From positions 1 through 64,000 of the IMG/VR virus record IMGVR_UViG_3300027845_000169: a stretch of DNA of 64,000 bases; one strand, 5' to 3'. Position numbers and translations under genes: made by a program. The notes under the pieces were generated by a model. The model had not been told where the DNA came from, did not search any database, and worked only from the letters and a program-made list of their open reading frames with translations. This document shows positions 3,391-59,574 of this stretch, piece by piece. Each line of letters starts with the position of its first letter. Position 1 is the first letter of the stretch. This stretch comes from a virus (taxonomy: Duplodnaviria > Caudoviricetes).

Positions 3391-4329
3391 ATGGAACATA
3401 AATGGTATGGCGACCATTCTGTTCAAACTGCTATATGGGCTATGGCTCGTAATCATGAAACTAAGTTTCAAATAGTGCATCGTGAAGGTGAAGTATTCGG
3501 CATTCGCCGCAGAAGAATGTGGGGAAGTGATGCCATAAAAACTGAATTGCAGACTTTATCTGCAAATCAAAGACCAATTGGAATCTTCATCAGCACTAAT
3601 GCTATCAATTGGAAAGTTATTCCACCGGATTTACTACCTCCTTCGTTGAGAAAGAAGGGAACAAGTGGTTACGATAACACCGCATTGAAAGGTTACAAGA
3701 AAACTTGGGACGGCTTATTGACTCCGGCAGCCTTGGAAGCCGTTGAAATGGATTTCATGGAAGTTTGGGACAATGGAAAGATTATGGTTTTTGACTTTGA
3801 CGATGAAGATAATCCGATGGCTGCCTTCAAAGCCGCACGACTGACACAAGATTATTTGGAAAAGGAACATCAAGTCAAAGGGGTGATGGTATTTAGTGGG
3901 AACAAAGGTTTTCACATTTGGGTTGCACCTACGGATGCTGAAAGTTTGGCAGGTTGTGTGCTCCAAGATTTCCGAACACAAGGGGACCCTTTGAAACAAC
4001 AAGGCCAACTTTACGCAAACTTTGTGAAACAAACAGTTTTGGCTGCCACGGGTAACTCTTTGCCAAATTATGATTTGTCGCCTAACTATCGTCAAGGTAT
4101 TGTTAGGTGTCCGTATTCCATTCACGAGAAGTCCGGACAAATTGTATGGCCACTTTCTCCAACTGAAGTTTTGGAATTACAAAAGTTTGAGGACAAAGTT
4201 CTGGACCCCGAAGGAGTTGCCCGGGTGCTCCACAGTTGGGACACTCCAAACTTTGTGGATTCTAAGAAAGGTTTGAGTTACTTTCCGCCTTGCACGAGTG
4301 TGCACTCAAGAAATATGTGGCGACTTTAG
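3391..4329 (+). CDS. priS: Archaeo-eukaryotic primase, catalytic small subunit-like
   Basis: VFDFD (motif I), FSGNKGFH (motif II), RCPYSIHEKSG. Confidence 0.8.
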   Translation: MEHKWYGDHSVQTAIWAMARNHETKFQIVHREGEVFGIRRRRMWGSDAIKTELQTLSANQRPIGIFISTNAINWKVIPPDLLPPSLRKKGTSGYDNTALKGYKKTWDGLLTPAALEAVEMDFMEVWDNGKIMVFDFDDEDNPMAAFKAARLTQDYLEKEHQVKGVMVFSGNKGFHIWVAPTDAESLAGCVLQDFRTQGDPLKQQGQLYANFVKQTVLAATGNSLPNYDLSPNYRQGIVRCPYSIHEKSGQIVWPLSPTEVLELQKFEDKVLDPEGVARVLHSWDTPNFVDSKKGLSYFPPCTSVHSRNMWRL

Positions 4330-10821: not shown

Positions 10822-11787
10822 ATGAGTGATGAGGAAACAACCCCACAAAGACCCGATGTGGCACAATGCGAAGAATGCGGTAGCAAAGATGTTAAAGATG
10901 ATGAAAATGGATTTCCATGCTGCCAACAATGTGGATTAATGCAATCCAGTCTTTCTATTGACTACGGTAAAGACAATCGTGTGTTCTCCGATGGCTCCGG
11001 CATGGAGAGTGAGCGTTGGGGAATGCCAAAGACAGATTTGATTCACGATGGTGGACTATCCACCGACATTTCATGGCAAAACAAAGATTACTCCGGTAAT
11101 CCACTTGCTAAAGGAATGGCTTCTAAGATTCACAGGCTACGCCGACAACACCAAAGAACCCGTATTAAGGATGCAACCGAGCGAAACCTTGTAGTAGCCT
11201 TAGCGGAATTACAAAGATTGGCTGGCCAAATGGGACTGCCACAAACTATCAAAGAGTCTGCGGCTCGTCATTACAAAAATGCAGTAAAGATGAAGTTAGT
11301 GCGTGGGCGTTCAATTGAAGGAGTCGTAGCGGCTTCGCTTTATCTTTCATGCAGAATGGCTGATGCTCCAAGAACATTGGATGAGGTCGGACATTATTCA
11401 AGAACAGGTCGTAAGGAAATTGGCCGCACCTACCGTGCTATCGTCAAAGCCCTCAAGATTAAAGTTCCACCGGCTGAACCACATGGCTATGTTCCTCGGT
11501 TCTGCACTTCATTGAATCTTCCAACACCCGTTCAAGTCCGAGCATTGCGACTTGTGCATGAGAATGAGAAATCAAATGGGATGGCAGGTCGTGGCCCTAC
11601 TGGGATTGCGGCGGCGGCAGTTTATCTTGCAGCCATGTTAAAAGGACACAACCGCACTCAAAGAGAAGTGGCCGTAGCCGCAGGTGTAACCGAGGTAACT
11701 ATCCGCAACCGTTTCAAAGAAATGTGTGCAGACTTTGGATTCAACCCATCCAACCCTCAAGAAGACGACTTGAAGAAAGATGAGTAG
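10822..11787 (+). CDS. tfb: Archaeal transcription initiation factor IIB (TFB)
   Basis: N-terminal Zn ribbon CEEC/CQQC, HDGGLSTDI, ERNL, RGRSIEGVVAASLY, PRTLDEV, GRGPTGIAAAAVY, TQREVA..AGVTEVTIRNR. Confidence 0.95.
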   Translation: MSDEETTPQRPDVAQCEECGSKDVKDDENGFPCCQQCGLMQSSLSIDYGKDNRVFSDGSGMESERWGMPKTDLIHDGGLSTDISWQNKDYSGNPLAKGMASKIHRLRRQHQRTRIKDATERNLVVALAELQRLAGQMGLPQTIKESAARHYKNAVKMKLVRGRSIEGVVAASLYLSCRMADAPRTLDEVGHYSRTGRKEIGRTYRAIVKALKIKVPPAEPHGYVPRFCTSLNLPTPVQVRALRLVHENEKSNGMAGRGPTGIAAAAVYLAAMLKGHNRTQREVAVAAGVTEVTIRNRFKEMCADFGFNPSNPQEDDLKKDE

Positions 11788-11818: not shown

Positions 11819-12424
11819 ATGGATATTGGTTATTTTGTCGTTTTACTCGGCATAGCCTTGATGCTTCCTCTTTTGTATTACCTATCAAATATCATTGCTC
11901 AATGGGTTAATGATGGCGAAGTCGTTGTGGAACCTACAATAGAGATTCCGGACTTACAACCAATTATTGATAGTCTGCACGAAAGTGTGGCTAACTTACA
12001 TACGGACCTTGAATCTTGGCGTTACATAGCCAATGAGCGTGAAGAACGGGCCAATAGTTTGGAAGCAGATAAGGTAGGCTTAGAAATGACAATAGAAACT
12101 TTGAGGGGAGAAGTTTTGCATCAAAAGGGAAGGGCTGCTTCGGCACATACTACCCGAGGCCAACTTCTTGAGAAATGGACTCCCTTCGTGTCAGCGGAAG
12201 GTATAGAAGAACATTGGCGTGTGGAAGATTGGCAATTCCTCGGAGCACCTATTGACTATGTAGTATTTGATTGGCGACAAGACAAAGTGGAAAACTTAAC
12301 GAGTGGGAAGATTGTCTTACTTGATGTGAAGAGTGGGAAAAGTCAATTGACTTCCAAACAAAGAAGAATCCGTGATTTAATCAAAGCAGGGCGTGTTGAA
12401 TGGCGAGAGATTCGCTTAGATTAG
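11819..12424 (+). CDS. Holliday junction resolvase-like PD-(D/E)XK endonuclease with N-terminal TM helix and coiled coil
   Basis: FLGAPIDYVVF...DVKSGKSQLTSKQRRIRDLIKAGRVEW, typical of the Endonuc_Holl family. Confidence 0.8.
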   Translation: MDIGYFVVLLGIALMLPLLYYLSNIIAQWVNDGEVVVEPTIEIPDLQPIIDSLHESVANLHTDLESWRYIANEREERANSLEADKVGLEMTIETLRGEVLHQKGRAASAHTTRGQLLEKWTPFVSAEGIEEHWRVEDWQFLGAPIDYVVFDWRQDKVENLTSGKIVLLDVKSGKSQLTSKQRRIRDLIKAGRVEWREIRLD

Positions 12425-26654: not shown

Positions 26655-28346
26655 ATGGTCGCAGACATTCCGAAGGATATAACTACCTTCGCCCAAGATT
26701 GTGTTAGCGGCAAGCACACCAACAGACCCTATACTGACCGAAGCGTTTCTATTGAAGGTGCATACTATTCCCAAGTTACGGGTGAGTATGTTACTGGAAC
26801 AGGCATTTGTCTAAAGTTAGAAAGTGGACCACTTACAAAGAAAGAAGCCCGCAAGGTGGGACTAAAGTTTGCCATTTCCGATGGTAACTTCCAAGTCAAT
26901 TGTATGGCTCATAATGGAGCCACAGTTACATTACCGGCGAGTAAATCTTCGGAAGAGATGACACACATTCTTAAGACCGTTACTGATTCAATTCGTAATG
27001 GAAACAAAGTCGCATTTAGTGGTGCATTCATCACTCATAATCGTGACCTTGTATTCGTCATTGATAGTATAGCACCGTTGAAAAATATGCAACATAGTCA
27101 AATGACTGATGTGCAACTTGACGAGTTCCTTGCACTTTGTAAGGCTAACAAAACTAACCCACTTGAGTTAATGATGAGGGATGATACCCTTTGGTCGGAG
27201 TTATTCGCCCGTGATTATCTCAAGAAGGCTATCCTTCTTTATTGTCTATCGCCCCTGCGTAAGCAAGACATGATGCACATTGGTATTGTATCATCAGTCG
27301 GCGAAGGGAAAGACCACTTGATTGAAAGAGTCATTGAACCTTTAGTTCCAGTAGGTGTAGCATCCAGCGGAAAACTATGCACAATCCCCGGATTGTTTGG
27401 AGCCATGAGTGGTGAAGACATCAACTCCATTGAGTTAGGTTTGATACCTAAACACAACAATGAAAGATTAGCAGTTTCCGAGTTTCAAACTTGGGATGAT
27501 GAAGTATTCGGAGAATTGATGAATACGATGGCTAATGGATATTTCACCATGCAGAAGGGACAGGTTGATACCCGCCGTGATGCCAAAGCGAATATGTTAT
27601 TCCTTGGAAATCCCCCGCACTATTGGGATGAAGAAGCCGGACACGAAGGTAAAGATATGCTTCAAGCGTTCGGACAATACACAACCCAAATCATGAGTCG
27701 CTTAACACTCATCTTTACTCAAATGTCTTTGGCCGGAGATGATGCCAAGGATAAGATTAGAGAGAACATCATGAGGACGATGGATGGCCAGTTCTCTAAT
27801 GGAGGTTCGGAAGAAGCGGCCAAACTTTGGAGAGCATTCTTCCGTGAGTATTTGAGAAAAGTTAGCGACAGTAACCCTACAATCGGAAAGTTAGCCGGAA
27901 TCATTAACAGCACTTATGACGAAATTGAGGAAAGGCCACAATTCAAATCTGCCTTCTTACTTCGTAGTAACAATGATTACAGAAAATACCAAGAGTTCAC
28001 GAACCTAATCAAAGGTTTCGCCAAACTTTCCGGTTCTAAGAAAATAACTGTAAAACATTTGATGCTGGCAAGACAAATCTTTGAAGAAAGTCTAATCACA
28101 CTTATTGATGAGTTCCCAACTACTGCTATGAACATGGGAGTGGACTATGAATTACTCACCTGCCTTGAGTTAGCAAAAACTTCGGGACGAATGTTTGATA
28201 ATGCCAGTCAATTGAAACGGGCTGGCGACATGACACAACAACAATTAGACACGCTGGTTCATGTAGGAGCCATTGCCGAAATGTCCGGTGGAGAGTATCT
28301 CATAAATGAGGATTTTGATATGAATGGTTTGGAGGAATCACCATGA
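26655..28346 (+). CDS. mcm: Divergent MCM-like AAA+ helicase
   Basis: HIGIVSSVGEGKD (Walker A-like), TIPGLFG, IELGLIP, LAVSEF (Walker B-like), LFLGNP, IMSRL. Confidence 0.65.
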   Translation: MVADIPKDITTFAQDCVSGKHTNRPYTDRSVSIEGAYYSQVTGEYVTGTGICLKLESGPLTKKEARKVGLKFAISDGNFQVNCMAHNGATVTLPASKSSEEMTHILKTVTDSIRNGNKVAFSGAFITHNRDLVFVIDSIAPLKNMQHSQMTDVQLDEFLALCKANKTNPLELMMRDDTLWSELFARDYLKKAILLYCLSPLRKQDMMHIGIVSSVGEGKDHLIERVIEPLVPVGVASSGKLCTIPGLFGAMSGEDINSIELGLIPKHNNERLAVSEFQTWDDEVFGELMNTMANGYFTMQKGQVDTRRDAKANMLFLGNPPHYWDEEAGHEGKDMLQAFGQYTTQIMSRLTLIFTQMSLAGDDAKDKIRENIMRTMDGQFSNGGSEEAAKLWRAFFREYLRKVSDSNPTIGKLAGIINSTYDEIEERPQFKSAFLLRSNNDYRKYQEFTNLIKGFAKLSGSKKITVKHLMLARQIFEESLITLIDEFPTTAMNMGVDYELLTCLELAKTSGRMFDNASQLKRAGDMTQQQLDTLVHVGAIAEMSGGEYLINEDFDMNGLEESP

Positions 28347-30959: not shown

Positions 30960-31472
30960 ATGTCCGACCTTCCAAGTGATAGTCCTAACAAAATGAAGCC
31001 CGCAGCCTTGCTTACTGGTGCATTAGCCGGTATGTCTTTAGTGCTAACCCAAACTGATATGTCCGAGTATTCCCTTTACACCGCCGTGGGTGCTGGATTT
31101 ACTTTCATTACTTATCTTTACCTACGCAACAAAGCAAAGATTATTGCCGTAGTTGATGAGGGAATTGAAGATTTGACAGGTATTGACCTCTCCGCAGAAG
31201 ATGTGGAAAAGTTAGTGGACCAAGCAGCAGACTCCGTAGGAGATATTGCTTCCGATGCTCTCGCCGCCGCCGAAGAAGGTAAAGATGTTGCCGATGCTAT
31301 CAAAGACGCAGTTGAAGATGAGATTCACGAAGAAATCGGAATTGAAATTGAACTTGACGAACTTACAGTAAAAGGTTTGAAGAACGAACTCAAACAATTA
31401 GGACTTTCCACTAAAGGTAGGAAGGCTGAATTAGTCGCTCGTCTAACCGAGGCAATGTCAAAAGGTGAATGA
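30960..31472 (+). CDS. Membrane-anchored SAP-domain protein
   Basis: Two N-terminal TM helices; C-terminal LTVKGLKNELKQLGLSTKGRKAELVARL SAP motif. Confidence 0.8.
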   Translation: MSDLPSDSPNKMKPAALLTGALAGMSLVLTQTDMSEYSLYTAVGAGFTFITYLYLRNKAKIIAVVDEGIEDLTGIDLSAEDVEKLVDQAADSVGDIASDALAAAEEGKDVADAIKDAVEDEIHEEIGIEIELDELTVKGLKNELKQLGLSTKGRKAELVARLTEAMSKGE

Positions 31473-31633: not shown

Positions 31634-31856
31634 AGATAATCGCAAAGCGGTTTGGAAAGCAATTCAAACTACTGGTGATTTGTTAGTCGGCAGACTGCCC
31701 GAATCTTCAAGACATCCTAATGGCCGTAATCCATACGCTCATGTCGCCTTGTGCGTCAAGAATAAGTTTGGTTGTAGTTACAAAGATATTCCCGATGAGG
31801 ATATTATGGATGTTATAGAATACCTTGAATGGCTAACTACGAAATCAGTTTCTTGA
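31626..31856 (+). CDS. Small hypothetical protein
   Basis: 76 aa; HPNGRNPYAHV...SYKDIPDE. Confidence 0.6.
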   Translation: MNEDNRKAVWKAIQTTGDLLVGRLPESSRHPNGRNPYAHVALCVKNKFGCSYKDIPDEDIMDVIEYLEWLTTKSVS

Positions 31857-33002
31857 TTTCTTTTCTTGGTCTGCTTTGATAACTGACTTCAAAAGTGCTT
31901 CCCACTCATCCGCTTTATTCTCAAGAGTTTGTTCACCAGCCCATGCTTTTCCGGCTTCCCTGTAAGGGAGGGTTAATTCGGGATTATCCATGTAAGTTTC
32001 CAAGGTGCGGGCAACTACACTAATGTAATCGTTGTGTTCCATATCAACGCCCTCGGCTCCACGCTTTGGAATGAGGACTCCTCTATCACCGATGGTGTGA
32101 GGCATAGAACCAAGTTCCGATGCAATAATAAAACAACCTGCTCTTTGGGCTTCCAAAGCACAAATGCAATAAGTTTCCACGAAGTCGGTAGGATATAGAA
32201 GGATGTCGCACTCCGCCCAAGCCTTCTCAATTTCCTCATCACTAACATATCCAAATAATTCAATGTCGTGTGGGGACTCTTCCACAAGTTGTCTTAGGGA
32301 TGGAGTTTTCCAATCAAAGAATCGGAAAGTGCGGCCCGGATAAGGAGCATTGTCATCATCTTCATACTCGGCTTGATGGCCATAGATGTGAAATGAAATC
32401 TTACCGTGCTTCTCGGGGTCTATTTTGTTGATGACTTCTAAAGCAGAACAAAGACCTCTATTCCAACCGGAAATCCAAACCATACGATTCTTGACTTTCT
32501 CAATTCCGCTGGTGTCAAGTTTAGGGGCATCTAAGCCATGACCTATTTCGTTGAAGTGGTGGTGTGGTATATTGTAATGTTGCATCATTCCATAAGTGTG
32601 GGATGGAGTGAGTGTGACGGTCTTAGAACAAAGTCCACCTTCCACCAAGTTGGCGTAAGTCTGCCTACCATCCTCATAAAAGACAGTATTCTCATAGCCT
32701 GTGAGTGGTCTTACATCATGTTGCCAAAATACAGTAGGGACTTGCTTACATTCTTCATAAAGCCAATAGTTAAGGTATCGCTGAACAATAACTACATCAA
32801 AATCAAGAGCGTTCATAGTTGGCAAAGGTCTTGACCTCCAACAGAAGATTTCAACATGGTGACCTCGCTTAACGAGTTCAACGGCCATTTGTGCTAATGA
32901 CCTCTCACTTCCCCATCCACCGCCGGGAAGTTCCCAATCTTCAGTAACTACTGTGTGTGCATCAAAGACAGGGGAATAACCAGTCCAATAAGCGATACGC
33001 AT
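31845..33002 (-). CDS. Glycosyltransferase, GT-B fold (GT4-like)
   Basis: GGGWGSE, DILLYPT..ETYCICALEAQRAG (Ex7E). Confidence 0.85.
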   Translation of the reverse strand: MRIAYWTGYSPVFDAHTVVTEDWELPGGGWGSERSLAQMAVELVKRGHHVEIFCWRSRPLPTMNALDFDVVIVQRYLNYWLYEECKQVPTVFWQHDVRPLTGYENTVFYEDGRQTYANLVEGGLCSKTVTLTPSHTYGMMQHYNIPHHHFNEIGHGLDAPKLDTSGIEKVKNRMVWISGWNRGLCSALEVINKIDPEKHGKISFHIYGHQAEYEDDDNAPYPGRTFRFFDWKTPSLRQLVEESPHDIELFGYVSDEEIEKAWAECDILLYPTDFVETYCICALEAQRAGCFIIASELGSMPHTIGDRGVLIPKRGAEGVDMEHNDYISVVARTLETYMDNPELTLPYREAGKAWAGEQTLENKADEWEALLKSVIKADQEKKSRN

Positions 33003-33069
33003 AATAGCCCATACGGTAATTTCCTACTTAATGGTTCTTTGAAATAGGTGTTTGCACCTATGCCTAATC

Positions 33070-36000
33070 ATGAGCCGTGCTGTTAAGCAACCTCAAGTTG
33101 TGGACTATGAACCCTACTATGAGATGCTTCAAAAAGATACAGACGAGGTTTATGATATTGCTAACCGGTGCAGAAGTCAAGGCTATGACCCCGAATTGAA
33201 AGTTGAGATACCTCAAGCCAATGACTTGGCAGACCGCACACAAAAACTTTTGAACTTCTTACACCCAAGAAACACGGCAGCACAAATCCGTGAATTGACG
33301 GAACTGCACGAAGGAAATAGAGAGTTAGTGGCTTTGGACCTCGCCAAGATTGTTTGTGCCGAAACTTTCCTATATGCTAAGACTTCTAAATGTCAAGTTT
33401 GTGATGGTAAAGGAACTATCAAAAAAGGATATAGAACGAGGGACTGCCACGCTTGTGAAGGTAGTGGATTGAAATTAGATTACACTAAAGATTTGATAAC
33501 TAATACTTGGGAAGAAACTTTGGAGGCAATGGAAAACTTTGCAGACATCAAGAAAACAACCAAGACAAGAATGGCACTTTGTATCTATCATGGAATCTGT
33601 GCAGGGTTAGCAGTCTTGACCGAAGGAATCCTTGTGGCTCCACTTGAAGGTGTAGTTTCATGTAGGATTATAGACAATGCCAGCGGAAGCCGAAGTCTTG
33701 CGATTAACTTTGCTGGACCAATTCGTTCTGCTGGTGGAACAGGTCAAGCGTTATCAGTTTTGATTGGAGATATTCTTCGCCGACAATTCGGATTGGAACC
33801 TCCGGAAATGACTTTTGAAGAAATTGAAAGATACAAAGAAGAAGTTATGAAATATGGTCGTGGTCTGCAATACCGTCCATCTAATCCTCAAATTGAAGTT
33901 CTATGTAATAACTGTCCGGTCTATCTTGATGGAGAGGGTGTGGGTGAAGAAGTAAGCGGACAAAGAGATTTGCCGAGAGTCCCCACGAATAAATGTCGTG
34001 AAGGTGCCCTATTGGTATTATGTGAAGGCATGGTATTGAAGGCTCCAAAGATTCTCAAATATACAGACGCACTTGGGTTTTCCGAGTGGGAATGGTTGAG
34101 AGAGTTCGCACCTAACAAAGAAGAAGAAGATGATGGGCCTAAGACCTTACAACCTATCAATAAGTATCTCGCAGACATGGTAGCGGGGCGACCAATCTTT
34201 TCACAACCAATGCAAGTAGGCGGGTTCCGACTTAGGTATGGTCGTTCCCGATTAGCAGGGTTGGCAACTACGGCAGTCCACCCATCCACTATGAAAGTTG
34301 TGGCAGGGTTTTTCATTACAGGAACTCAACTGAAATATGAACGGCCCGGAAAAGGAACGGTGGTAACTCCTTGCGATAGTATAGAAGGCCCCTATGTTCA
34401 ATTCACAGATGGGTCGGGTAAAAGGATTAGAGAACCTTCGGAATTACCGGACGGGTTACCAACTGACCCTTATTGGCCGATAGAAAAGATTTGGGATATT
34501 GGAGAATTACTCGTTCCAGTCGGTGAGTTTTTGGAAAATAATCATACTCTTGCCCCCTCACCTTATGTAAGAGAATGGCACGAACAAGTTATAGAACAGC
34601 ATACTGCGTCCTATCCTACCTCATTTATAGAAAGTTTGGAACAATCCGAGCAGTTGGGAATACCGATTGCCCCGGAATACATTGCTTACTATAATGAAGT
34701 GAGCATAGAAGATATAGAACGCTTGGCTGCGGACACAAAAGTTGATGTTCATACTCAATCTATAACTGTTGCTAAAGATTCAAGACCCACGATTTATGCG
34801 TTAGGAATTGATATAGATAAGGATGGGAAAATAGAAGGCGATAAGGGCGTGTTTTGGGGCTGGGTAGTATCACAGACCTCAAATAGTAAGGCAACGCCAC
34901 AGGACGGCTTAGAATGGGTAAATATGAGGCTTCCAGAAGGAGTTGAGGCTCTTTCAGCCGTTACACTCCGAATTGGAGCAAGAATGGGTAAGCCGGAAGG
35001 TTCTAAGCCAAGAGAAATGAAACCTGCTATTCATGGACTTTTCCCAGTTGGTTTTAAGGTGGGGACAAAAAGATTAATGCGAGATGCCGCCGCCAAGAAA
35101 GTTAAGATTGAAGTTGGCCTAAGACTGGATGAAGAAACTGGCGAACATACTTGGCAAAGGTTCCTCAAAAATCCCGATGGAAGTTTCCGTAAAACTAAGT
35201 TTGTGGAATTACAACAACAAAATGTTGGGTTCAATGATTTGTGGGAACAATCCCTCAAAGATGCAGACTTATTGGGGACTCCCGAAGTTAAGGGAGTCAA
35301 GGGAATGACGAGTGTGGAAAAGACTCCGGAATCAATGTTGAAAGGGGTTTTGCGTTACAAAAATGGAGTATCAGTATTCCGTGATGGGACACTACGATGG
35401 GACATGGTTGATATTACCATGACTCATTTCCGTCCGGCAGAAATCGGCATGACAATAAAGCAAGCACATAAGTTAGGATATACTTACGATGTTTTCGGGG
35501 ACCCCTTGACAGATGAAAACCAAACTTGTGAATTGAGGGTGCAAGATGTAGTATTGCCAACTAACTGTGCGGACAATCTTGTAAAGGCTACTAAGTTTTT
35601 AGACGATTTGTTAATTAGACAATATGGAGAAAAGGCTTACTATAATGTGGATAGTCCACAAGATTTAATAGGACACTTGGGTATGGGTATCGCACCTCAC
35701 ACAAGTGGGGCTATCGTTTGTCGTATCATCGGATTCAGTAATATAAAGGGACACTACGGACATCCATTTTTCCATGCGGCGAAACGCCGTAATTGTGATG
35801 GAGATATTGACGCATTTATGCTATTGCTTGATGGAGTTCTAAACTTTAGTAGGGCTTTCCTCGCAGGGCATAGGGGCGGTCAAATGGATGCACCATTGAT
35901 TCTCACTATGCGTATCAATCCAAGTGAAATTGACAAAGAGGCTCTCAATGTTGATACTTCTATGCAATATCCAATTACATTTTATGAAGGGACACAATCA

Positions 36001-36612
36001 TACCCCGATGCTAAAGATGCGCTCAAGTTAGGTGTTGAAACTGTTGAAACGAGATTGGGTAGTCCAGCGGAACTTAGCGGTTTTGGTTTCACACACGACA
36101 CAGAAGATTGTGGGGCCGGGCCTATTATCAATCCATATACAGAATTAGAATCCATGCGTCAAAAGACAATGGCTCAATTCGCTCTTGGAGATTTACTTCA
36201 TGCCGTTGATAATAAACAACAGGCTTCCAAACTTATTGACCGACATTTGATTAGAGATATGAGAGGTAACCTTCGGGCATTCGGACAACAAAAAGTTAGG
36301 TGTCCTAAATGTGGAGCGAAATATAGACGACCACCTATCACGGGTAAATGCAGAACTTTGTTATCGGAAAAATCGTCCGAAGAGTCGGTGACCGGAGAAC
36401 ACGAAGTTGTTTATTGTGATGGCCAAATTATTCTTACGGTGTCAAAAGGTTCTGTTAAGAAGTATGACTCATTGATGAATGACCTTGTGGATAAATATGG
36501 ATGCGATAATTACATTCAACAATTGTATTACCATGTGAGTGATTGGGTATCTCAAACATTTGACGATAACGACATGACCGAGCAAACTAAGTTAGATTTA
36601 GATTTCCTTTGA
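33070..36612 (+). CDS. polC: DNA polymerase D large subunit (DP2)
   Basis: LAVLTEGILVAPLEG, FAGPIRSAGGT, GGFRLRYGRSR, IGARMGKPE, VKGVKG, APHTS, HPFFHAAKRRNCDGDID, RGGQMDAPL, GNLRAF, CPKCGAKYRRPP; TGAAATAGGTG 30 nt before ATG 33070. Confidence 0.95.
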   Translation: MSRAVKQPQVVDYEPYYEMLQKDTDEVYDIANRCRSQGYDPELKVEIPQANDLADRTQKLLNFLHPRNTAAQIRELTELHEGNRELVALDLAKIVCAETFLYAKTSKCQVCDGKGTIKKGYRTRDCHACEGSGLKLDYTKDLITNTWEETLEAMENFADIKKTTKTRMALCIYHGICAGLAVLTEGILVAPLEGVVSCRIIDNASGSRSLAINFAGPIRSAGGTGQALSVLIGDILRRQFGLEPPEMTFEEIERYKEEVMKYGRGLQYRPSNPQIEVLCNNCPVYLDGEGVGEEVSGQRDLPRVPTNKCREGALLVLCEGMVLKAPKILKYTDALGFSEWEWLREFAPNKEEEDDGPKTLQPINKYLADMVAGRPIFSQPMQVGGFRLRYGRSRLAGLATTAVHPSTMKVVAGFFITGTQLKYERPGKGTVVTPCDSIEGPYVQFTDGSGKRIREPSELPDGLPTDPYWPIEKIWDIGELLVPVGEFLENNHTLAPSPYVREWHEQVIEQHTASYPTSFIESLEQSEQLGIPIAPEYIAYYNEVSIEDIERLAADTKVDVHTQSITVAKDSRPTIYALGIDIDKDGKIEGDKGVFWGWVVSQTSNSKATPQDGLEWVNMRLPEGVEALSAVTLRIGARMGKPEGSKPREMKPAIHGLFPVGFKVGTKRLMRDAAAKKVKIEVGLRLDEETGEHTWQRFLKNPDGSFRKTKFVELQQQNVGFNDLWEQSLKDADLLGTPEVKGVKGMTSVEKTPESMLKGVLRYKNGVSVFRDGTLRWDMVDITMTHFRPAEIGMTIKQAHKLGYTYDVFGDPLTDENQTCELRVQDVVLPTNCADNLVKATKFLDDLLIRQYGEKAYYNVDSPQDLIGHLGMGIAPHTSGAIVCRIIGFSNIKGHYGHPFFHAAKRRNCDGDIDAFMLLLDGVLNFSRAFLAGHRGGQMDAPLILTMRINPSEIDKEALNVDTSMQYPITFYEGTQSYPDAKDALKLGVETVETRLGSPAELSGFGFTHDTEDCGAGPIINPYTELESMRQKTMAQFALGDLLHAVDNKQQASKLIDRHLIRDMRGNLRAFGQQKVRCPKCGAKYRRPPITGKCRTLLSEKSSEESVTGEHEVVYCDGQIILTVSKGSVKKYDSLMNDLVDKYGCDNYIQQLYYHVSDWVSQTFDDNDMTEQTKLDLDFL

Positions 36613-36621
36613 GGGGAGAAG

Positions 36622-36843
36622 TTAGCCATACATAGAGTAGTCTTCCTTAGTCGGAGGCTTCTCTTCTTTAGCGTTTAATCTGCTTCCCAAGGTAACTTCT
36701 AACAAAGACTTCAAAACTTGTTTGATTTCTGCCAACTCATTACTAATCTCATCCACCGATTCATGGACTTCATCAACTTTATGTCCTAAGCGAGTCACCG
36801 TCATTCTTTTCGGTGTGACAACTGTCATATCGTCCTCGGGCAT
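36622..36843 (-). CDS. Small coiled-coil protein
   Basis: Heptad pattern; TTAAATGG 29 nt before ATG 36843. Confidence 0.55.
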   Translation of the reverse strand: MPEDDMTVVTPKRMTVTRLGHKVDEVHESVDEISNELAEIKQVLKSLLEVTLGSRLNAKEEKPPTKEDYSMYG

Positions 36844-36899
36844 GATGTTCATTTGTCATTACTACCATTTAATAGTTAGCCTGTTTGCTTGTTTATAAG

Positions 36900-37985
36900 T
36901 CACTCAAACCAAGGCAGATTCGCCCTTAATCTTTGCTTCTCCCCTTCTGGGACATCATGCCTTTCCAGCAAACTTTTAGTAATTTCTAAGGCTCTCTCCA
37001 TATTTTCAATTTCATAATATGCCATTGCTGCGGAATCATCAACCATCCAATTATATTGTGGTTGCATGAACAACCCCATGGTATTCCACTCTTCAACTTG
37101 TTCGTATAACTCAAGTGCCCTCCGTAACAGTTTCCAATTCCCCAAAGTTTTACCATGCAACAAAAGTTTGAAGTAAGCATCTGGTCGCTGCGTAACACTT
37201 TCAATAGCCTTGAATAAATAATCTGCATCTTTCGTCATTTCCCAAATGGCTAACCAAGATTCATAGATTTCTTCATCCCAGCCACCCATACAGGTTCGCA
37301 TTTTGTAATAACGAATTGCATCAGCCCAGTAAGGTTCCCCTGCGTCTTTGCACGATTGTGCTAAATAGAATGTATATCGTTGAAGTAAGAAAGGGTCCTT
37401 TTCCTCATTCATGGCAGCAAGCAGGGTGCTTCTATCATTCACATAAAGTTGTGCTCCTTTCGCTCGGCCTCCGCCATCGTAATGATGGTTGATACTGATT
37501 GTATTCAAGACCCCTCCTGTTTGCTCTTGACCGTCACCAGTATAGCCGATAAACTCGTGGACGACTGAACGCCAGCGATAGGAAGTTTGAGAATTGATAA
37601 GCCAAGGGAGCCAATGAGTCATGGAACCTCCCACTACTGCCAGCATATAAGAATCTATATCGGTGGAAAGTTTGGAAGTCCATTTCTCATCGGTGACTTC
37701 CAAAGTATGGTCCGCATCAAGGTAAATGTAAAAATCACAAGCGGACGAGTCGGCTTGGTCCAAACATTGATTGCGAGCATCAGCAAATCCATTCCAAGGT
37801 GAGTCAAAAACTTTGCCAACGGTATTGCCTTCAAAATAGTCCAAAACTTTCTGCTTTGTGTTGTCGGTGGTCTTTTCATCCACACCAATACAAAAGTAGT
37901 CAAGATAGGGTGCAATAGTGTCTAAGCACCGCTCAATGTTGGCCTCTTCATTATAAAGAGTCATCAATAGTCCTATCTTAACCAT
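36900..37985 (-). CDS. GT2 glycosyltransferase with TPR-like C-terminus
   Basis: YNEEANIERCL, GFADARN, YLDAD, VVHE, FYLAQS. Confidence 0.85.
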   Translation of the reverse strand: MVKIGLLMTLYNEEANIERCLDTIAPYLDYFCIGVDEKTTDNTKQKVLDYFEGNTVGKVFDSPWNGFADARNQCLDQADSSACDFYIYLDADHTLEVTDEKWTSKLSTDIDSYMLAVVGGSMTHWLPWLINSQTSYRWRSVVHEFIGYTGDGQEQTGGVLNTISINHHYDGGGRAKGAQLYVNDRSTLLAAMNEEKDPFLLQRYTFYLAQSCKDAGEPYWADAIRYYKMRTCMGGWDEEIYESWLAIWEMTKDADYLFKAIESVTQRPDAYFKLLLHGKTLGNWKLLRRALELYEQVEEWNTMGLFMQPQYNWMVDDSAAMAYYEIENMERALEITKSLLERHDVPEGEKQRLRANLPWFE

Positions 37986-38026: not shown

Positions 38027-43933
<5,907 letters not shown>

Positions 43934-44954: not shown

Positions 44955-45800
44955 TCACCCAATATAGTCTTGCCGTGCCTTCTCCATATCCAAATATGCT
45001 TTGGAAACTGCAAGGTATTTTTGCCAAGTTTCAGTTTCAAGACCCTGTTGCTTCACTAATTGACGGCGAAACCACTCGGCATTATCCACATTTACAGGGA
45101 TTCCAAGTTTCAAAAGTTCTTCAGCGATTAAGGCATCACTTCCGCTAAAGAGCCAATACTGAACGAACACTTGAGCCAATTGAGGGCCTTCAAAACGCTG
45201 ACCGCCGGAAATAAAACCTTCTTTGGGGGCGATTCTTACATTAGTTGGAGCAGCCCCACCTCCCGGTGTATAGGTAGCCAAATTAGTCATGTAATTTTTA
45301 ATATCATTCATCATAGTATATCGCACATCCCATGTAACGAAAGGTTCAATATAAATGGGTGGATTGAGCATATAGTGAGAAGGTCTAATCCCTTCAGTTT
45401 CGGGGAACGGAGCCGCATTTCCGGATATTCCAATAGATGATACATTCTGTGGGTCTTGATAATATCCCGTAGTATCAACCCATATATTGACGAAACCATT
45501 AGGAATCCAACGAATAAGGACCACTTGACCGGTTGAAGTGATGTCCCAAGACACATTGTTACCCTCCGCCATCATAATTCCGGGAGTGCTACCGAAACGG
45601 TCAATAACTACGAAACTTCCATCTCGCACCATGTTAGATTCAGTTACATTGTTCCCATAACCACCTGTAAAGATAGAGAATGTTTCCCCTGCATCGGGTA
45701 ATAAATCATCCACAAACGGTGTTTGAGGGTTAAAAACGGTTTGACTATCATTCCATTCCACATAGAGTTGCCAATCATAAACTTGTTTAGTGATAGCCAT
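44955..45800 (-). CDS. Putative capsid-family protein (paralog 4)
   Basis: KQVYDW, SIFTGGYGNN, FVVID, PPIYIEP..TWDV, SGSDALIAEELLKLG shared with 58280-59574. Confidence 0.6.
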   Translation of the reverse strand: MAITKQVYDWQLYVEWNDSQTVFNPQTPFVDDLLPDAGETFSIFTGGYGNNVTESNMVRDGSFVVIDRFGSTPGIMMAEGNNVSWDITSTGQVVLIRWIPNGFVNIWVDTTGYYQDPQNVSSIGISGNAAPFPETEGIRPSHYMLNPPIYIEPFVTWDVRYTMMNDIKNYMTNLATYTPGGGAAPTNVRIAPKEGFISGGQRFEGPQLAQVFVQYWLFSGSDALIAEELLKLGIPVNVDNAEWFRRQLVKQQGLETETWQKYLAVSKAYLDMEKARQDYIG

Positions 45801-45864
45801 TATATCATCCTCCAAAGTAATTTCAAAAAGTTAGGGATGAGGGACTTACCCGCTTCAGCAATCA

Positions 45865-46644
45865 TTAATCCACTCTCCTTGGTCCAGTTGGCATACGAGC
45901 CATCTTCTCTTGGAAAACTTCGTGGCGAATTAACATTCGGCGGTAACCGTTGATGTTGGTTACTGTAATTGGAAATCCATTTTTAAGTAATTTCATAGCA
46001 ATAGCCGCATCTGCTCCATCTAACAATAAGTATTTGACATAGCAATAAGAAACTTGTGCGTCATTATAAATGGTATTGTCTTGGTCTTCCTTTGGATTGG
46101 TATAAATGATGTCCCAAACTTGGCCGGGAAGAATATAAACAGGCGTTGGTAATCCATTCTTAAATGCTTCAAAAGTATAGATTGGTTGAACTTCTTGTAA
46201 TTCTTTGGGAGCGTCTGTAACTGCTTGTAAGTTATGGTCGGGGAACGGAACTGCTGCACTCGGCAAACCTTTTGAGGGGCGACCATCCGGAGTTTGGAAG
46301 TAATAAGTTTCATTCACTCGGATTTGAATAAATGCGTCTTGATTAGGTGATTCACCAATTCTTGCTGATTGACCGTCCCATCCGCTGATACTGTCTATAA
46401 CTATAAATTGTGCGGCACGAAGGGATGCGGGAATATCAAGATTATTTCCACGGCCGCCTGTGAATATACTCATCCCATCTTTAGGTAATCGGACAGAAAA
46501 GATTGGATTATTGAAGGCACCGGCTGACGCTCCAAAGTTCGGAGGTGTTAAAACGGGGTGACCTTGTGTGGAAGTAAAACCAGCATCATATTGTTGCTCG
46601 GTAATTAAATTGCGCCACTCATAGGCTTGACGGCGGATACCCAT
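45865..46644 (-). CDS. Putative capsid-family protein (paralog 3)
   Basis: RQAYEW, SIFTGGRGNN, QIRVNETYYF, VYILPGQVWD, KYLLLDGADA. Confidence 0.6.
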   Translation of the reverse strand: MGIRRQAYEWRNLITEQQYDAGFTSTQGHPVLTPPNFGASAGAFNNPIFSVRLPKDGMSIFTGGRGNNLDIPASLRAAQFIVIDSISGWDGQSARIGESPNQDAFIQIRVNETYYFQTPDGRPSKGLPSAAVPFPDHNLQAVTDAPKELQEVQPIYTFEAFKNGLPTPVYILPGQVWDIIYTNPKEDQDNTIYNDAQVSYCYVKYLLLDGADAAIAMKLLKNGFPITVTNINGYRRMLIRHEVFQEKMARMPTGPRRVD

Positions 46645-50242: not shown

Positions 50243-51958
50243 TCACTCGTCACCGAGTTGGCGGAAAAGGTCGGAAATCTTGTCGCTATACTTGTATGCT
50301 GCAATCAATCCTACTACTAATCCTACACCGGCTGCCATACTGATACCGCTACCGTCTGCCTCAAAAGAGTCGGAAGGTCCAGCAGGTGGACCACCTTCGC
50401 CGGATGGGGCTTCAGTTAGTGGGTCGTAATCTAATGGGGATGGGCCGTCTTCGGCTTCATATTCATCATGTCCGCCGCAACTTGCTTCAAAACATTCTGC
50501 ACAATACAAATCTTCGGCATTACTAATGAACTCCGCTGAAAAAGCACCTGCGTCTGCATCTGCTTCGGACCAGCCAAAGTTTGCATCGGGTCCACCTTCA
50601 CCAGATGGAGATGCAGTTAGTGGGTCATAATCTAATGGATGTGATTCCATAGGGGCTGAACTTTCTTCTGCTCCGAACTCAAGGTCATAGCCCTTGCGTG
50701 TTTTCTTGGAAAGTTTCTTCTCAATTTCCCTAATTGCTCCGGATTCGGAACTCATTGCAGGGCCATACCAAGTGCGAGCACCGTAGCCAATTCTTCCATA
50801 AGCGTTAGCGGGCATAAACATACCGTTGTCTAACTTTAGAACTGTGAATAAATGATATTTGTTAGTGGAAACTCCTTCTTTCATAGTGTAGTATTTAGGG
50901 CCGAAAGCAATAAAGTTACCACGAGCAAGAGTGTAAGGTGTTCCGTTGATAAGTGCGGCCATGCCCTTGTTCACATCTCCGGGTCCGGATTGATAAACAG
51001 CCATTGCCTCAAAGTGGTCCGATGGTGCGGATTCATCCAAATGAGGTCCCGGTGTTTCGCTTAGTGGGTCATAATCATGTGCGGTTGCATCTTCAGCGTG
51101 AAGTGGTGTATAGTTAGCGTCAGCAGTTTGGCTACCGATAACATGACCGGAACCTGCTGGGAAAGTTGAAGGGTCAGCCACAACTGGCTCACCTTCTTCG
51201 GCGTAGTATTGTGTAACGCCGTGTCCGAGTGGAGCCTCAACGACTACACTTTCAACACCGTCAAAGTCTTCTAAGGAGGCGAGGTCGCCACCAAATGCTT
51301 CTGCGGAAAAAGAGGCTGCTGGTCCGCCGTCATCCATTGGAGTTTCAGCAGTTGGGTCATAGGCCATAGGCTCGGAGCCTTGTGGAGAGTCTGCGGTTGC
51401 ACTAACTGATGATTGCTCAACAACGGAGGGAGCGATTGTTTCACCGCTTTCCTCGGTGTAAGCGTTATCAACTTCGGGTTGTTCAACATCTGCTTGTTCT
51501 TCAATATCGGTTACTTCGGTTGGAGTTTCAACTCCGTCACCTTCGGCACCCATCTTAGCGAGTTTGGCCATCTTTTTCTTACCGTATTTCTTCATACCGA
51601 TAACTGCGGCAGTAGCGTCACCAATCTTTTCTGCTTCTTCCGGTGACTTACCCTTTTTCTCGTATTCTTCGGCAATATCGTCCGAAAGGTTATCAAATCT
51701 TTTTCCGGAACCAAGTTTTGGTTCTGCATCAAGAACGATGGTGTTATTTTTGGTTGCTGCGGTTACTCCGGCAGACTTCATAGAATCGTGAACGGCCTTG
51801 CTACACATAGATGTGCAATTGTATTTCTTGCCACTATCCATGTAGTGACCCTTAATTTGATATTTGCTCCCTTTGCTGGTAACCATGTGGGTTACTCCAT
51901 CAACGGTTGCATCAACCTTTCTCTTAAGTCCAACGCAATACATATTGTGTGTTGCCAT
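50243..51958 (-). CDS. Mosaic acidic protein with WGR-like domain, YDP repeats and C-terminal TM anchor
   Basis: NKYH...AYGRIG...KKTRKGY (WGR-like); four YDP[LT] repeats; many xAE delimiters. Confidence 0.7.
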   Translation of the reverse strand: MATHNMYCVGLKRKVDATVDGVTHMVTSKGSKYQIKGHYMDSGKKYNCTSMCSKAVHDSMKSAGVTAATKNNTIVLDAEPKLGSGKRFDNLSDDIAEEYEKKGKSPEEAEKIGDATAAVIGMKKYGKKKMAKLAKMGAEGDGVETPTEVTDIEEQADVEQPEVDNAYTEESGETIAPSVVEQSSVSATADSPQGSEPMAYDPTAETPMDDGGPAASFSAEAFGGDLASLEDFDGVESVVVEAPLGHGVTQYYAEEGEPVVADPSTFPAGSGHVIGSQTADANYTPLHAEDATAHDYDPLSETPGPHLDESAPSDHFEAMAVYQSGPGDVNKGMAALINGTPYTLARGNFIAFGPKYYTMKEGVSTNKYHLFTVLKLDNGMFMPANAYGRIGYGARTWYGPAMSSESGAIREIEKKLSKKTRKGYDLEFGAEESSAPMESHPLDYDPLTASPSGEGGPDANFGWSEADADAGAFSAEFISNAEDLYCAECFEASCGGHDEYEAEDGPSPLDYDPLTEAPSGEGGPPAGPSDSFEADGSGISMAAGVGLVVGLIAAYKYSDKISDLFRQLGDE

Positions 51959-58279: not shown

Positions 58280-58918
58280 TTACTGTGCAGATAGTAGGCT
58301 TCTCTTATACCAATCCACATTTCCAGGGTTGATGCTTATTCCCATCTCTAACAGTTTGTTAGCGATAAGAGCGTCCGGCCCGTCATATAGAGTGTATTTA
58401 GTAAAGCATCTTAGGCTTCCGCTAACACATTGAGTTGCTGCTGTTGGCAATCCTGTGTTGTTATACCATGTAACCAATACATCCCAAACTTGTCCCGGTA
58501 GGACATAAACATCTGGGTATAGGTTGAACGAAGGTTGGAAGTTCACAGACCTTGGGTAAGGACTTGCTGAACCTGGGATACCATCGTTTGGCACATTGTC
58601 TGGGTCAAGGAAATAATCAGTTGTGTTGATTCTCACTTGAACGAAAGCACGAGGGCCTCCCATTCCGCTTCCAGCAGTTCCCACGGTTAGACCACGGTAT
58701 GTGCCGGATGTTCCGGATGAAAGGAATGCTGTTGGAGTAACTGCAATATCTTCAATAACAACGAACTCGGTAGCAGAAGTTTCTGCTGGCTTTGTGATGT
58801 TGTTACCTAATCCACCAACGAAGATGGAGATTTGCTGTCCGACATTGGATGCAATATCCACTACTGCTGATGAGTAGTTAGTTGCGTCCCATTCATAGAC
58901 TTGGCTTCGCATTGACAT
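58280..58918 (-). CDS. Putative major capsid protein (paralog 2)
   Basis: Highly similar to the adjacent gene (MSMRSQVYEW, GNNITKPAET, FVVIEDIA, RINTTDYF, YPDVYVLPGQ, KYTLYDGPDALIANKLLE); beta-rich; capsid role inferred. Confidence 0.55.
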   Translation of the reverse strand: MSMRSQVYEWDATNYSSAVVDIASNVGQQISIFVGGLGNNITKPAETSATEFVVIEDIAVTPTAFLSSGTSGTYRGLTVGTAGSGMGGPRAFVQVRINTTDYFLDPDNVPNDGIPGSASPYPRSVNFQPSFNLYPDVYVLPGQVWDVLVTWYNNTGLPTAATQCVSGSLRCFTKYTLYDGPDALIANKLLEMGISINPGNVDWYKRSLLSAQ

Positions 58919-59574
58919 TAAGCACCAACTCCTTGTGCAGCAGCCATAGCAGCCGCAGATGCAGCAGCCTGTTGCTGTTCAATAAGTGAACGCTTATACC
59001 AATCAACATTGTTTGGGTTGATTGTGACACCAAGTTCCAAAAGTTTGTTAGCAATAAGAGCGTCCGGTCCATCGTAAAGTGTGTATTTAACGAATGCTGC
59101 GACAACATCTGTTGATGTTGATGCTCCGCCACCTACACCATCACGAGTGGTGTAAAGAATCTGCCATGTTTGGCCCGGTAGGACATATACATCTGGGTAT
59201 AGGTCAAAGGACTTTAGCAAATTGTCGGTTCCGCTTGCAGTTGAAGCACTACCACGAGGGTAGGGGCTTGCAAGTCCCGGGATTCCCAACATATTTGTTA
59301 CATCGGGGTTTTGGAAGTAGTCAGTCGTATTAATACGAATCTGGACATTTCCATTTGCTTGTGCGGAACACGCAATGTCTTCAATTACAACGAACTGTGT
59401 CGCTGTTGTTTCGGCTGGCTTGGTAATGTTATTTCCATATCCACCAATAAACAAATCTAACTCACGGTTTGCGGGCAATTCCACAGGCAAGTCGGATGTG
59501 GTTCGGCGAAGTGTGGAAGTCTTACCCGTAGGCGCTAAATTGGCCCACTCATATACTTGGCTTCTCATACTCAT
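58918..59574 (-). CDS. Putative major capsid protein (paralog 1)
   Basis: As above; preceded by promoter at 59630-59637 and a 5' leader hairpin. Confidence 0.55.
   Translation of the reverse strand: MSMRSQVYEWANLAPTGKTSTLRRTTSDLPVELPANRELDLFIGGYGNNITKPAETTATQFVVIEDIACSAQANGNVQIRINTTDYFQNPDVTNMLGIPGLASPYPRGSASTASGTDNLLKSFDLYPDVYVLPGQTWQILYTTRDGVGGGASTSTDVVAAFVKYTLYDGPDALIANKLLELGVTINPNNVDWYKRSLIEQQQAAASAAAMAAAQGVGA

Follow-up and report, generated by a model that had tools for sequence, protein, structure and literature searches.

The window analysed here, a 64,000-nucleotide stretch of DNA, covers positions 1-64000 of the virus record IMGVR_UViG_3300027845_000169 of IMG/VR, a contig of 150,353 bp that is classed as linear (G000 below). 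At 33070-36612(+) it carries a gene for DP2, the catalytic subunit of family D DNA polymerase (PolD), which replicates the chromosomes of most archaea. We consider it likely that this DP2 is the catalytic subunit of a virus-encoded PolD, and that its gene belongs to the core of widespread linear double-stranded DNA (dsDNA) viruses or virus-like elements of about 150-170 kb, with marine planktonic archaea, probably Marine Group II, as their presumed hosts. We also lean towards the broader proposal that these elements form a hitherto undescribed lineage of large Marine Group II viruses with linear dsDNA genomes, spread across the globe, which has long carried its own complete PolD replisome (DP1, DP2, PCNA, MCM and primase) together with TBP and TFB. 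A preliminary description of the window had read the gene as a virus-encoded PolD. The present analysis supports this reading, and none of the three findings named as speaking against it (a chimeric contig, a cellular chromosome, or near-identity to a host gene) holds.

The DP2 gene is a single unbroken open reading frame (ORF) of 1180 aa, running from the ATG at 33070 to the stop at 36612 with no internal stop. The ATG is likely the true start, because a TGAAATAG box is found at 33040-33047, exactly 30 nt upstream. Three Pfam domains were matched in the one polypeptide, PolC_DP2_N (PF03833, 1.5e-80), PolC_DP2_central (PF24844, 6.2e-83) and PolC_DP2_cat (PF24846, 2.6e-120). The protein scored 990 bits against the NCBIfam equivalog TIGR00354 (cut-off 702) and fell below the cut-offs of the narrower models NF003103, NF011302 and NF011303. 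With phmmer, it matched the solved DP2 of Pyrococcus abyssi (6hms_B) at 3.7e-224, at moderate identity. The full-length DP2 with conserved blocks that the preliminary description had reported is borne out by the intact ORF, the three domains, TIGR00354 and the solved structure.

The catalytic loop reads RRNCDGDID, as had been noted, and its aspartates are indeed retained. When aligned to 6hms_B, the protein has D910 and D912 in the places of P. abyssi D956 and D958, which passages of PMC4996933 report as critical by mutagenesis. The residues D910, G911, D912, I913 and D914 were invariant in 23 of 23 clade members, and so were the four cysteines of the C-terminal zinc finger. We take this zinc-finger domain to be the DP1-binding part of DP2, as in the P. 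abyssi structures; in the present protein such binding is a prediction. By its sequence, the gene product is a genuine PolD catalytic subunit, family D by enzyme class, and it is probably enzymatically active. Polymerase activity of PolD, heterodimer formation and PCNA binding are likewise predicted.

The preliminary description had found no DP1, the proofreading subunit of PolD. This holds for the window, where a PF04042 search detected no DP1, but not for the genome. The sole PF04042 match in the whole contig, at 138038-138640(-), lies in a DP1 gene about 100 kb from DP2 (Table 1). Comparison with orthologues places its start at GTG 139207 or TTG 139213, giving a protein of about 444 aa that adjoins the upstream gene. 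DP1 matched a solved DP1 in the PDB at 4.5e-77 over residues 62-441, comprising the OB and phosphoesterase domains, and the metal-binding blocks DIHIGS, GDAVDG, GNHD, HG and GHTH all aligned to the solved protein. It passed NF003118 (454 bits, cut-off 445) and lacks the first approximately 220 residues of P. abyssi DP1. Orthologues with 63-74% identity were present in four of the five related records and missing from G001, which is a fragment. The upstream gene encodes TBP, and its end meets the start of DP1, so that the pair may be co-transcribed.

The rest of the contig had also been suggested as a place to look for PCNA and a family B polymerase (PolB). PCNA was found in four of four related virus records, in three of them above the Pfam cut-off. 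A search for PolB (PF00136) yielded no match at E <= 1 in any of the four records, which leaves PolD as the sole encoded polymerase of the replicative kind.

The relatives of DP2 fall into a distinct clade. In a search against 1.84 billion representatives clustered at 50% identity, DP2 retrieved its own entry at 90% and a single relative at 51%, with all others at 47% or less. The top 120 clusters from a collection built at 90% identity were 54-90% identical to DP2 and 1141-1206 aa long, with bin labels that were absent or mutually contradictory; more than 100 protein clusters at this level belong to the DP2 clade. Among the best 80 of at least 579 relatives (600 matched stretches) in a search of one genome per GTDB species, two loci were clade members, 52-54% identical, on bins labelled 'Rickettsiales' and 'Woesearchaeota'. 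The other 78 were DP2s of the Thermoplasmatota type with 37-44% identity. An even draw of 151 genomes from the phylum of one of these hits, the nearest cellular phylum, contained DP2 in 151 of 151 cases, with identities of at most 46% over near-full-length matches and at most 51% locally, and a DP2 of the clade type in none. With the nearest cellular DP2s at no more than 47% identity over full length and a clade made up of viral members, the gene is not a near-identical host gene.

Three signatures set the clade apart. At position 913, isoleucine was found in 16 of 16 viral rows of the alignment and glutamate in 71 of 74 cellular rows. The DGDED pattern is thereby broken, as the glutamate between the second and third aspartate, near-universal in cells, is replaced by I. 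We read this change as a marker of the clade that does not disqualify the protein, since no evidence was found that the residue is catalytic. The second signature is an insertion of about 60 aa that resembles a zinc ribbon and also gave a weak match to DnaJ_CXXCXGXG. The region is 75-87 residues long in 15 of 16 viral rows as against 14-24 residues in all 74 cellular rows; the insert itself is present in 15/16 and 0/74, respectively. Finally, the cellular rows shown end in K/QxxLxDF[LFCMY], and the viral rows mostly in QxxL[FW] or a close variant; the viral tail, which resembles a PCNA-interacting protein (PIP) motif, is shortened or shifted. The one viral row without the insert is the deep branch P0003. 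This deeper branch of DP2 (P0003, P0286) is 51% identical, occurs on contigs of up to 85 kb and has DGDID without the zinc-ribbon insert.

Phylogenetic analysis likewise gave a virus-only clade of DP2 on a long stem (0.49-0.65), not a gene nested among near-identical host genes, a distinction for which the preliminary description had proposed a DP2 tree. The FastTree analysis comprised 111 rows; 68 of 148 representatives were kept, and intein-bearing ones were left out (partly restored later). In this tree, the 28 viral rows were monophyletic with support 100 and a stem of 0.65, inside the Thermoplasmatota set. The IQ-TREE analysis (LG+G4, 79 rows, 11 near-duplicate rows excluded, alignment by MAFFT FFT-NS-2) recovered the 16 viral DP2 rows as monophyletic with support 100 and a stem of 0.49. 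The DP2 topology is that of the LG+G4 and FastTree models. The viral clade was sister to a cellular lineage represented by the genomes G047, G079 and G107, with a Shimodaira-Hasegawa-like approximate likelihood ratio (SH-aLRT) support of 99. The DP1 tree (16 rows, LG+C20+F+G4) united the five viral rows at 100/100 and placed them as sister to the same three genomes at 100/99. The top DP1 scores in these genomes were 352-360 bits, compared with 267-325 bits in seven other genomes of the phylum. Viral TFB also scored slightly higher against the three genomes. Similarity of viral TBP did not discriminate between the cellular lineages.

The three genomes are of marine origin (Tara sources) and measure 1.8-2.1 Mb; one 'Euryarchaeota archaeon' label was found at 80% identity. 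Rhodopsin was present in two of the three and in neither of two comparison genomes. The label, the Tara sources and the rhodopsin suggest that the lineage is probably Marine Group II (Poseidoniales), the group that marine source and rhodopsin presumably fit. Viral TBP matches each of the three genomes in two pieces, separated by about 70-90 nt and found in different open frames. A split, a shift or an interruption may affect the cellular TBP gene there. We also note that a 'Woesearchaeota' bin (L094, contig C37 of G005) holds a DP1 of the clade together with a second DP1-like gene, with 31-35% identity and a very long branch of 2.2-2.4.

The record itself is 91% coding with a GC content of 0.438, and GC is uniform (0.41-0.47) outside the collagen gene described below. 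An IMG/VR scan with DP2 as a single query gave no relative, and a query based on an alignment (A1) gave three, the records G001, G002 and G003 of 123, 160 and 166 kb. IMG/VR classes G002 and G003 as having inverted terminal repeats (ITRs), which were confirmed as 99 bp exact in G003 and approximately 3.6 kb, inexact, in G002. Collinear homologues of the 176 ORFs of G000 numbered 98 in G002 and 101 in G003. G001 was syntenic throughout, with homologues for 75 of its 139 ORFs, and no host flank was found to go with its 'provirus' label. In all three relatives, DP2 occupies the same place, the junction of a plus-strand replication arm and a long minus-strand arm. Judged by position in G002, G000 is short of about 13 kb on the left and 2 kb on the right, and is therefore near-complete save for its ends, which are presumably repetitive. 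Cumulative GC skew peaks (1.53) in 34001-36000 and then falls, coinciding with the strand switch at the 3' end of DP2.

The designation as a virus rests on the IMG/VR call, a packaging ATPase candidate of the FtsK/HerA type, jelly-roll-like proteins and the terminal repeats of the relatives. The capsid candidates are five paralogues of 160-280 aa that share the motifs RxQxYEW, FxGGxGN, FVVI, TxYFQxP, YVxPxxxW and DGxDALIA. For the 218-aa paralogue, 1689 homologues were found. It is unusually well conserved, with identities of 73-98% over the 120 clusters listed, compared with 54-90% for DP2. An AlphaFold2 (AF2) model of a paralogue with a more diverse alignment, the second one computed, reached a predicted local distance difference test score (pLDDT) of 77 and a predicted template modelling score (pTM) of 0.71, and consists of a beta-sandwich followed by helices. 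It matched the SPV1 capsid protein at Z 7.0 (root-mean-square deviation 4.3 over 140 residues) and a phage cement protein also at a best Z of 7.0, with proteins of STIV, HHIV-2, P23-77 and HCIV-1 among the further matches. In the ESM Atlas, which contained no structure of either candidate examined, clusters of the candidates were 88-100% 'Viruses'; PRD1 P2/P3 families appeared only at 0.76-0.77, the level of a lead. No terminase, portal or HK97 signals were found among the proteins scanned. The modelled beta-sandwich proteins appear compatible with single jelly-roll capsid proteins, which falls short of proof.

Several observations weigh against a viral PolD of Marine Group II and are collected here. 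For the capsid protein, no confident identification was reached. Of the two AF2 models of capsid candidates, the first was too poor to interpret (pLDDT 56.7); in the second, nucleoplasmin, cupin and pilus folds tied with SPV1, and no match reached Z 8. Foldseek against viral models (BFVD) gave 0 matches at E <= 0.001. Outside PHROGs, the ATPase was matched weakly (Pfam DUF87 0.0045, HerA structures 1e-05). G000 has no terminal repeat, and CheckV puts its completeness at 53%. PCNA, TBP and TFB score under their NCBIfam cut-offs. The E-to-I change lies next to the catalytic aspartates. In the DP2 phylogeny, FastTree gave the viral clade a neighbour differing from that of IQ-TREE, and the sister pairing unites two long branches (stems 0.5-0.7). 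The approximately unbiased (AU) test did not reject a clade of the cellular ingroup that excludes the virus (p 0.359), and viral DP2 may therefore be sister to one lineage or to the whole group, inside or beside the cellular phylum. There is no host link by way of CRISPR spacers, tRNA or integration. DP2 contigs in the RNA run X16 are no proof of transcription, since DNA carry-over is possible.

The lack of a confident capsid protein also favours a different explanation, in which a marine archaeon harbours the DNA as an extrachromosomal element that is not viral, such as a linear plasmid, a mini-chromosome or a Borg-like element, with its own PolD and no virion. The gene content is very cell-like (TBP, TFB, PCNA, PolX, ribonucleotide reductase, Fpg, ERCC4, CCA-adding enzyme), and contigs bearing homologues of the 218-aa protein reach 236 and 322 kb. 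We nevertheless regard such an element as unlikely: all four records are classed as viral by IMG/VR, the FtsK/HerA-type ATPase has a PHROG packaging match at 1e-15, and the unknown proteins encoded along one strand in a long arm are reminiscent of a structural module. The beta-sandwich family has five members, counts capsid proteins of SPV1, STIV, HHIV-2 and P23-77 among its top structural matches, and falls into the ESM Atlas clusters dominated by viruses.

A eukaryotic host, with the genome as that of a small virus related to the giant viruses and carrying a PolD captured from archaea, would account for the SAP domain, the collagen repeats, the many glycosyltransferases and DUF5754, DUF5872 and WGR. 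All of these occur more often in eukaryotes and large eukaryotic viruses; for SAP, DUF5754/DUF5872 and WGR, the comparison is with archaeal viruses. This is very improbable, as PolB is absent from four of four records, TBP, TFB, PCNA, DP1 and DP2 are best matched by archaeal models, and a promoter box at a fixed 29-30 nt before start codons fits archaeal leaderless genes. Moreover, both PolD subunits were placed as sister to a marine archaeal lineage, and a multisubunit RNA polymerase was not found among 70 ORFs scanned.

Slightly more improbable still is a miscalled piece of an archaeal cell's chromosome, or of an ultra-small symbiont's, in which DP2 would be an ordinary cellular gene. Clade members do carry the labels Rickettsiales, Woesearchaeota, Bacteroidetes, Thorarchaeota and Euryarchaeota in public bins, and the low CheckV completeness would agree with a miscall. 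The labels contradict one another, however, as mis-binning predicts, and none of the 151 genomes of the nearest phylum holds a clade member. No tRNA was found in G000, no Rfam family in the 142 kb of it that was searched, and no ribosomal protein or aminoacyl-tRNA synthetase among the 70 ORFs scanned with Pfam. Collinear relatives end in ITRs at 160 and 166 kb, so that defined genome ends come from G002 and G003, and the lack of cellular core genes from the absence of tRNA and Rfam RNA in G000. A cellular chromosome, which the preliminary description had raised, is not what these results and the IMG/VR classification indicate.

The assembly is sound at DP2. A 7-kb stretch over both DP2 junctions was represented by at least 81% of sampled words in 15 marine DNA runs, which belong to 12 studies. 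The source of the record may be among nine of these runs; X10 and X12, from two further studies, were not flagged so. With no more than one mismatch, their contigs span 32618-33305, 32620-34388, 35993-37143 and 35943-37694. The exact DP2 protein was found on 30 contigs from five collections, the longest of 151,649 bp. A chimeric assembly joining DP2 to viral DNA, which the preliminary description had raised and which the adjoining GC-rich collagen gene with its many repeat-related contig joints might favour, is practically negligible as an explanation, given the X10 and X12 contigs across both junctions, the exact protein from five sources, the uniform GC, the genome's own promoter box ahead of DP2 and the same placement in G001, G002 and G003.

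This promoter box is a variant of a genome-wide element. TTAA[AG]TA precedes the start codon by exactly 29 or 30 nt in 61 of the 176 ORFs of the whole contig, and it was found 109 times on both strands compared with about 73 occurrences expected from base composition. DP2 follows this promoter pattern of the genome. The box fits an archaeal TATA-like element, and the mRNAs would be leaderless.

From these components, a mode of replication may be proposed. DP2, with a core of two double-psi beta-barrels and the catalytic residues D910, D912 and D914, would pair with viral DP1 through its C-terminal zinc-finger domain. The distantly encoded DP1 would act as an Mre11-like 3'-5' proofreading exonuclease, and the shortened PIP-like motif at the C-terminus of DP2 would tether the heterodimer to viral PCNA. 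Following the MCM-like helicase, the heterodimer could then extend the primers that the PriS-like primase lays down, with the lagging strand completed by a FEN-like nuclease and an ATP-dependent ligase. Resolving the replication intermediates of the linear genome with its ITRs may fall to the Holliday-junction-resolvase-like nuclease. For expression, viral TBP and TFB would bring the host RNA polymerase to the T(T/G)AA(A/G)TAG box about 30 nt before the start codons of apparently leaderless genes, DP2 among them.

Besides the genes in Table 1, profile matches indicate that the contig encodes a deoxynucleoside monophosphate (dNMP) kinase, an XPD-like helicase, the ATP-dependent ligase, the FEN-like 5'-3' exonuclease and a nucleoside deoxyribosyltransferase. 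The repair gene set is unusually rich for a 150-kb element. The flanks of DP2, described earlier as glycosyltransferases and collagen, were identified as such by Pfam. In public contigs, skips and back-joints occur at 38580-39000 in the collagen gene, and the number of collagen repeats therefore probably varies or assembles poorly. A SAP domain (6.4e-12) was found at 30960-31472(+), DUF5754 with DUF5872 at 7034-8350(+), and a WGR domain at 50243-51958(-). An ArsA/Get3-type ATPase at contig 98250-99425(-) (1.9e-59), which is 52-55% conserved in G001, G002 and G003, could point to the insertion of tail-anchored membrane proteins.

Table 1. Features of the window and of the remaining contig. Positions outside the window are marked "contig"; empty cells, no entry.
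Feature	Position	Strand	Remarks
Promoter box TGAAATAGGTG	33040..33050	+	30 nt ahead of DP2 start; variant of genome-wide TTAA[A/G]TAG box
TTAAGTAG box of divergent glycosyltransferase	33024..33031	-	29 nt before ATG at 33002; back to back with DP2 box
Zinc-ribbon-like insertion of about 60 aa, clade-specific	33346..33585	+	Within residues 93-172; two CxxC pairs (C108, C111, C126, C129)
Catalytic loop RRNCDGDID	35785..35811	+	Residues 906-914
C-terminal zinc-finger cysteines	36301..36417	+	C1078, C1081, C1094, C1116
C-terminal PIP-like motif QTKLDLDFL	36583..36609	+	PCNA binding predicted
DP1	contig 137873-139207	-	PF04042 58 bits and Metallophos; outside window
TBP	contig 139210-139761	-	PF00352 8.8e-52; directly upstream of DP1
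PCNA	contig 119187-119939	-	PF00705 29 bits, above Pfam cut-off; divergent
MCM-like helicase	26655..28346	+	PF00493 6.5e-07; orthologues 49-51% identical in G001, G002, G003
PriS/PrimPol-like primase (weak)	3391..4329	+	PF21686 6.2e-06, PF01896 6.8e-05, both below cut-offs; NCBIfam PriS 9.3e-05
TFB	10822..11787	+	PF00382 6.4e-44; NF001658 353 bits, just under cut-off of 384
Holliday-junction-resolvase-like endonuclease	11819..12424	+	PF10107 9.2e-17
Candidate packaging ATPase, FtsK/HerA-type	contig 76890-78113	-	phrog_2666 'terminase large subunit' 9.8e-16
Tandem jelly-roll-like paralogues, capsid candidates	58280..59574	-	212 and 218 aa; 68-78% identical between genomes
Two further paralogues	44955..46644	-	281 and 259 aa; alignment A3
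Fifth paralogue locus	contig 103318-103806		
PolX-like polymerase	contig 114199-116811	-	870 aa
Ribonucleotide reductase	contig 116853-118844	-	1.7e-108
CCA-adding or poly(A) polymerase with HD domain	contig 112724-114154	-	
Fpg/Nei glycosylase	contig 132901-133782	-	
ERCC4 nuclease	contig 123773-124468	-	
GT1/GT4 glycosyltransferase	31845..33002	-	Pfam; divergent from DP2
GT2 glycosyltransferase	36900..37985	-	Pfam; opens minus-strand arm
Collagen-repeat protein	38027..43933	-	1968 aa; Pfam Collagen 2.3e-223; GC 0.56-0.59 compared with about 0.43 elsewhere

The viral PolD resembles the cellular enzymes of Pyrococcus abyssi and Thermococcus kodakarensis (PDB 6HMS, 6T8H, 6KNB) in the three DP2 domains, the RRNCDGD loop, the C-terminal zinc finger, the OB fold and all phosphoesterase motifs of DP1, the C-terminal PIP-like tail and the presence of a PCNA gene. 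It differs from them in its virus-like genome, in DGDID instead of DGDED, in the zinc-ribbon insert, which follows the N-terminal helices, in the altered tail and in the shorter N-terminus of DP1. Compared with the PolD of G047, G079 and G107, identity is about 45%; the DP2 of these cells has 1356-1383 aa and E in the loop, lacks the zinc-ribbon insert and ends in QLSLSDFL. What is new is the biological setting and the sequence variant (DGDID, zinc-ribbon insert, altered tail), whereas the enzyme family D is known. To our knowledge, no archaeal virus with both TBP and TFB has been described.

Among known viruses, the Magroviruses (Magrovirales), which are the viruses known from Marine Group II, are similar in that they are marine archaeal viruses with linear genomes and a near-complete archaeal-type replication apparatus, according to PMC5434244 and PMC11706807. 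They differ in having PolB and a head-tail structural module, as stated in passages of PMC11706807, while the present elements have PolD, lack PolB and are larger (150-166 kb). PolB is a hallmark of Magrovirales and Caudoviricetes of Marine Group II and also of Nucleocytoviricota, and PF00136 was found in none of the four records; the NCLDV capsid family was not searched for. The Varidnaviria-like viruses SPV1, HHIV-2 and P23-77 appear to share with our elements tandem small beta-sandwich paralogues and an FtsK/HerA-type ATPase. All Z scores are 7.0 at most and tied with unrelated sandwiches, no match exists at the sequence level, and the genome exceeds theirs in size several times; the elements are at most candidates for membership.

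Several abstracts describe PolD as exclusive to Archaea, and the passages available of a 2024 survey of viral polymerases name families A, B and C alone as common in DNA viruses (PMC11348598). The preliminary description had called a viral PolD rare. In agreement, no published report of one was found in full-text searches of the literature, including passages of PMC7544198, PMC11348598, PMC13465236, PMC11706807, PMC12680538 and PMC4996933; supplementary tables and subscription journals lie outside this scope. Viral PolD might be listed in gene tables of the Poseidoniales-virus and AVGD papers or in Table S4 of PMC7544198.

A virus-borne PolD of two subunits would alter the view of PolD as an enzyme of archaeal cells only. 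If the reading is true, PolD would be the fourth replicative polymerase family known in viruses, and a virus-specific branch of it, marked by DGDID and the zinc-ribbon insert, would be as old as the host class. The finding would bear on how PolD spread in the archaea and on models in which cellular replication has PolD-like enzymes at its root, and would add a viral lineage to the debate on the origin of replicative polymerases and on exchange between viruses and cells. For enzymology, it would offer a natural divergent PolD in which a new zinc module and a changed tail for clamp binding accompany the E-to-I change by the active site. It would also mark out an abundant group of ocean viruses, with more than 100 clusters at 90% identity and a strain that is near-identical in 15 DNA runs from 12 studies.

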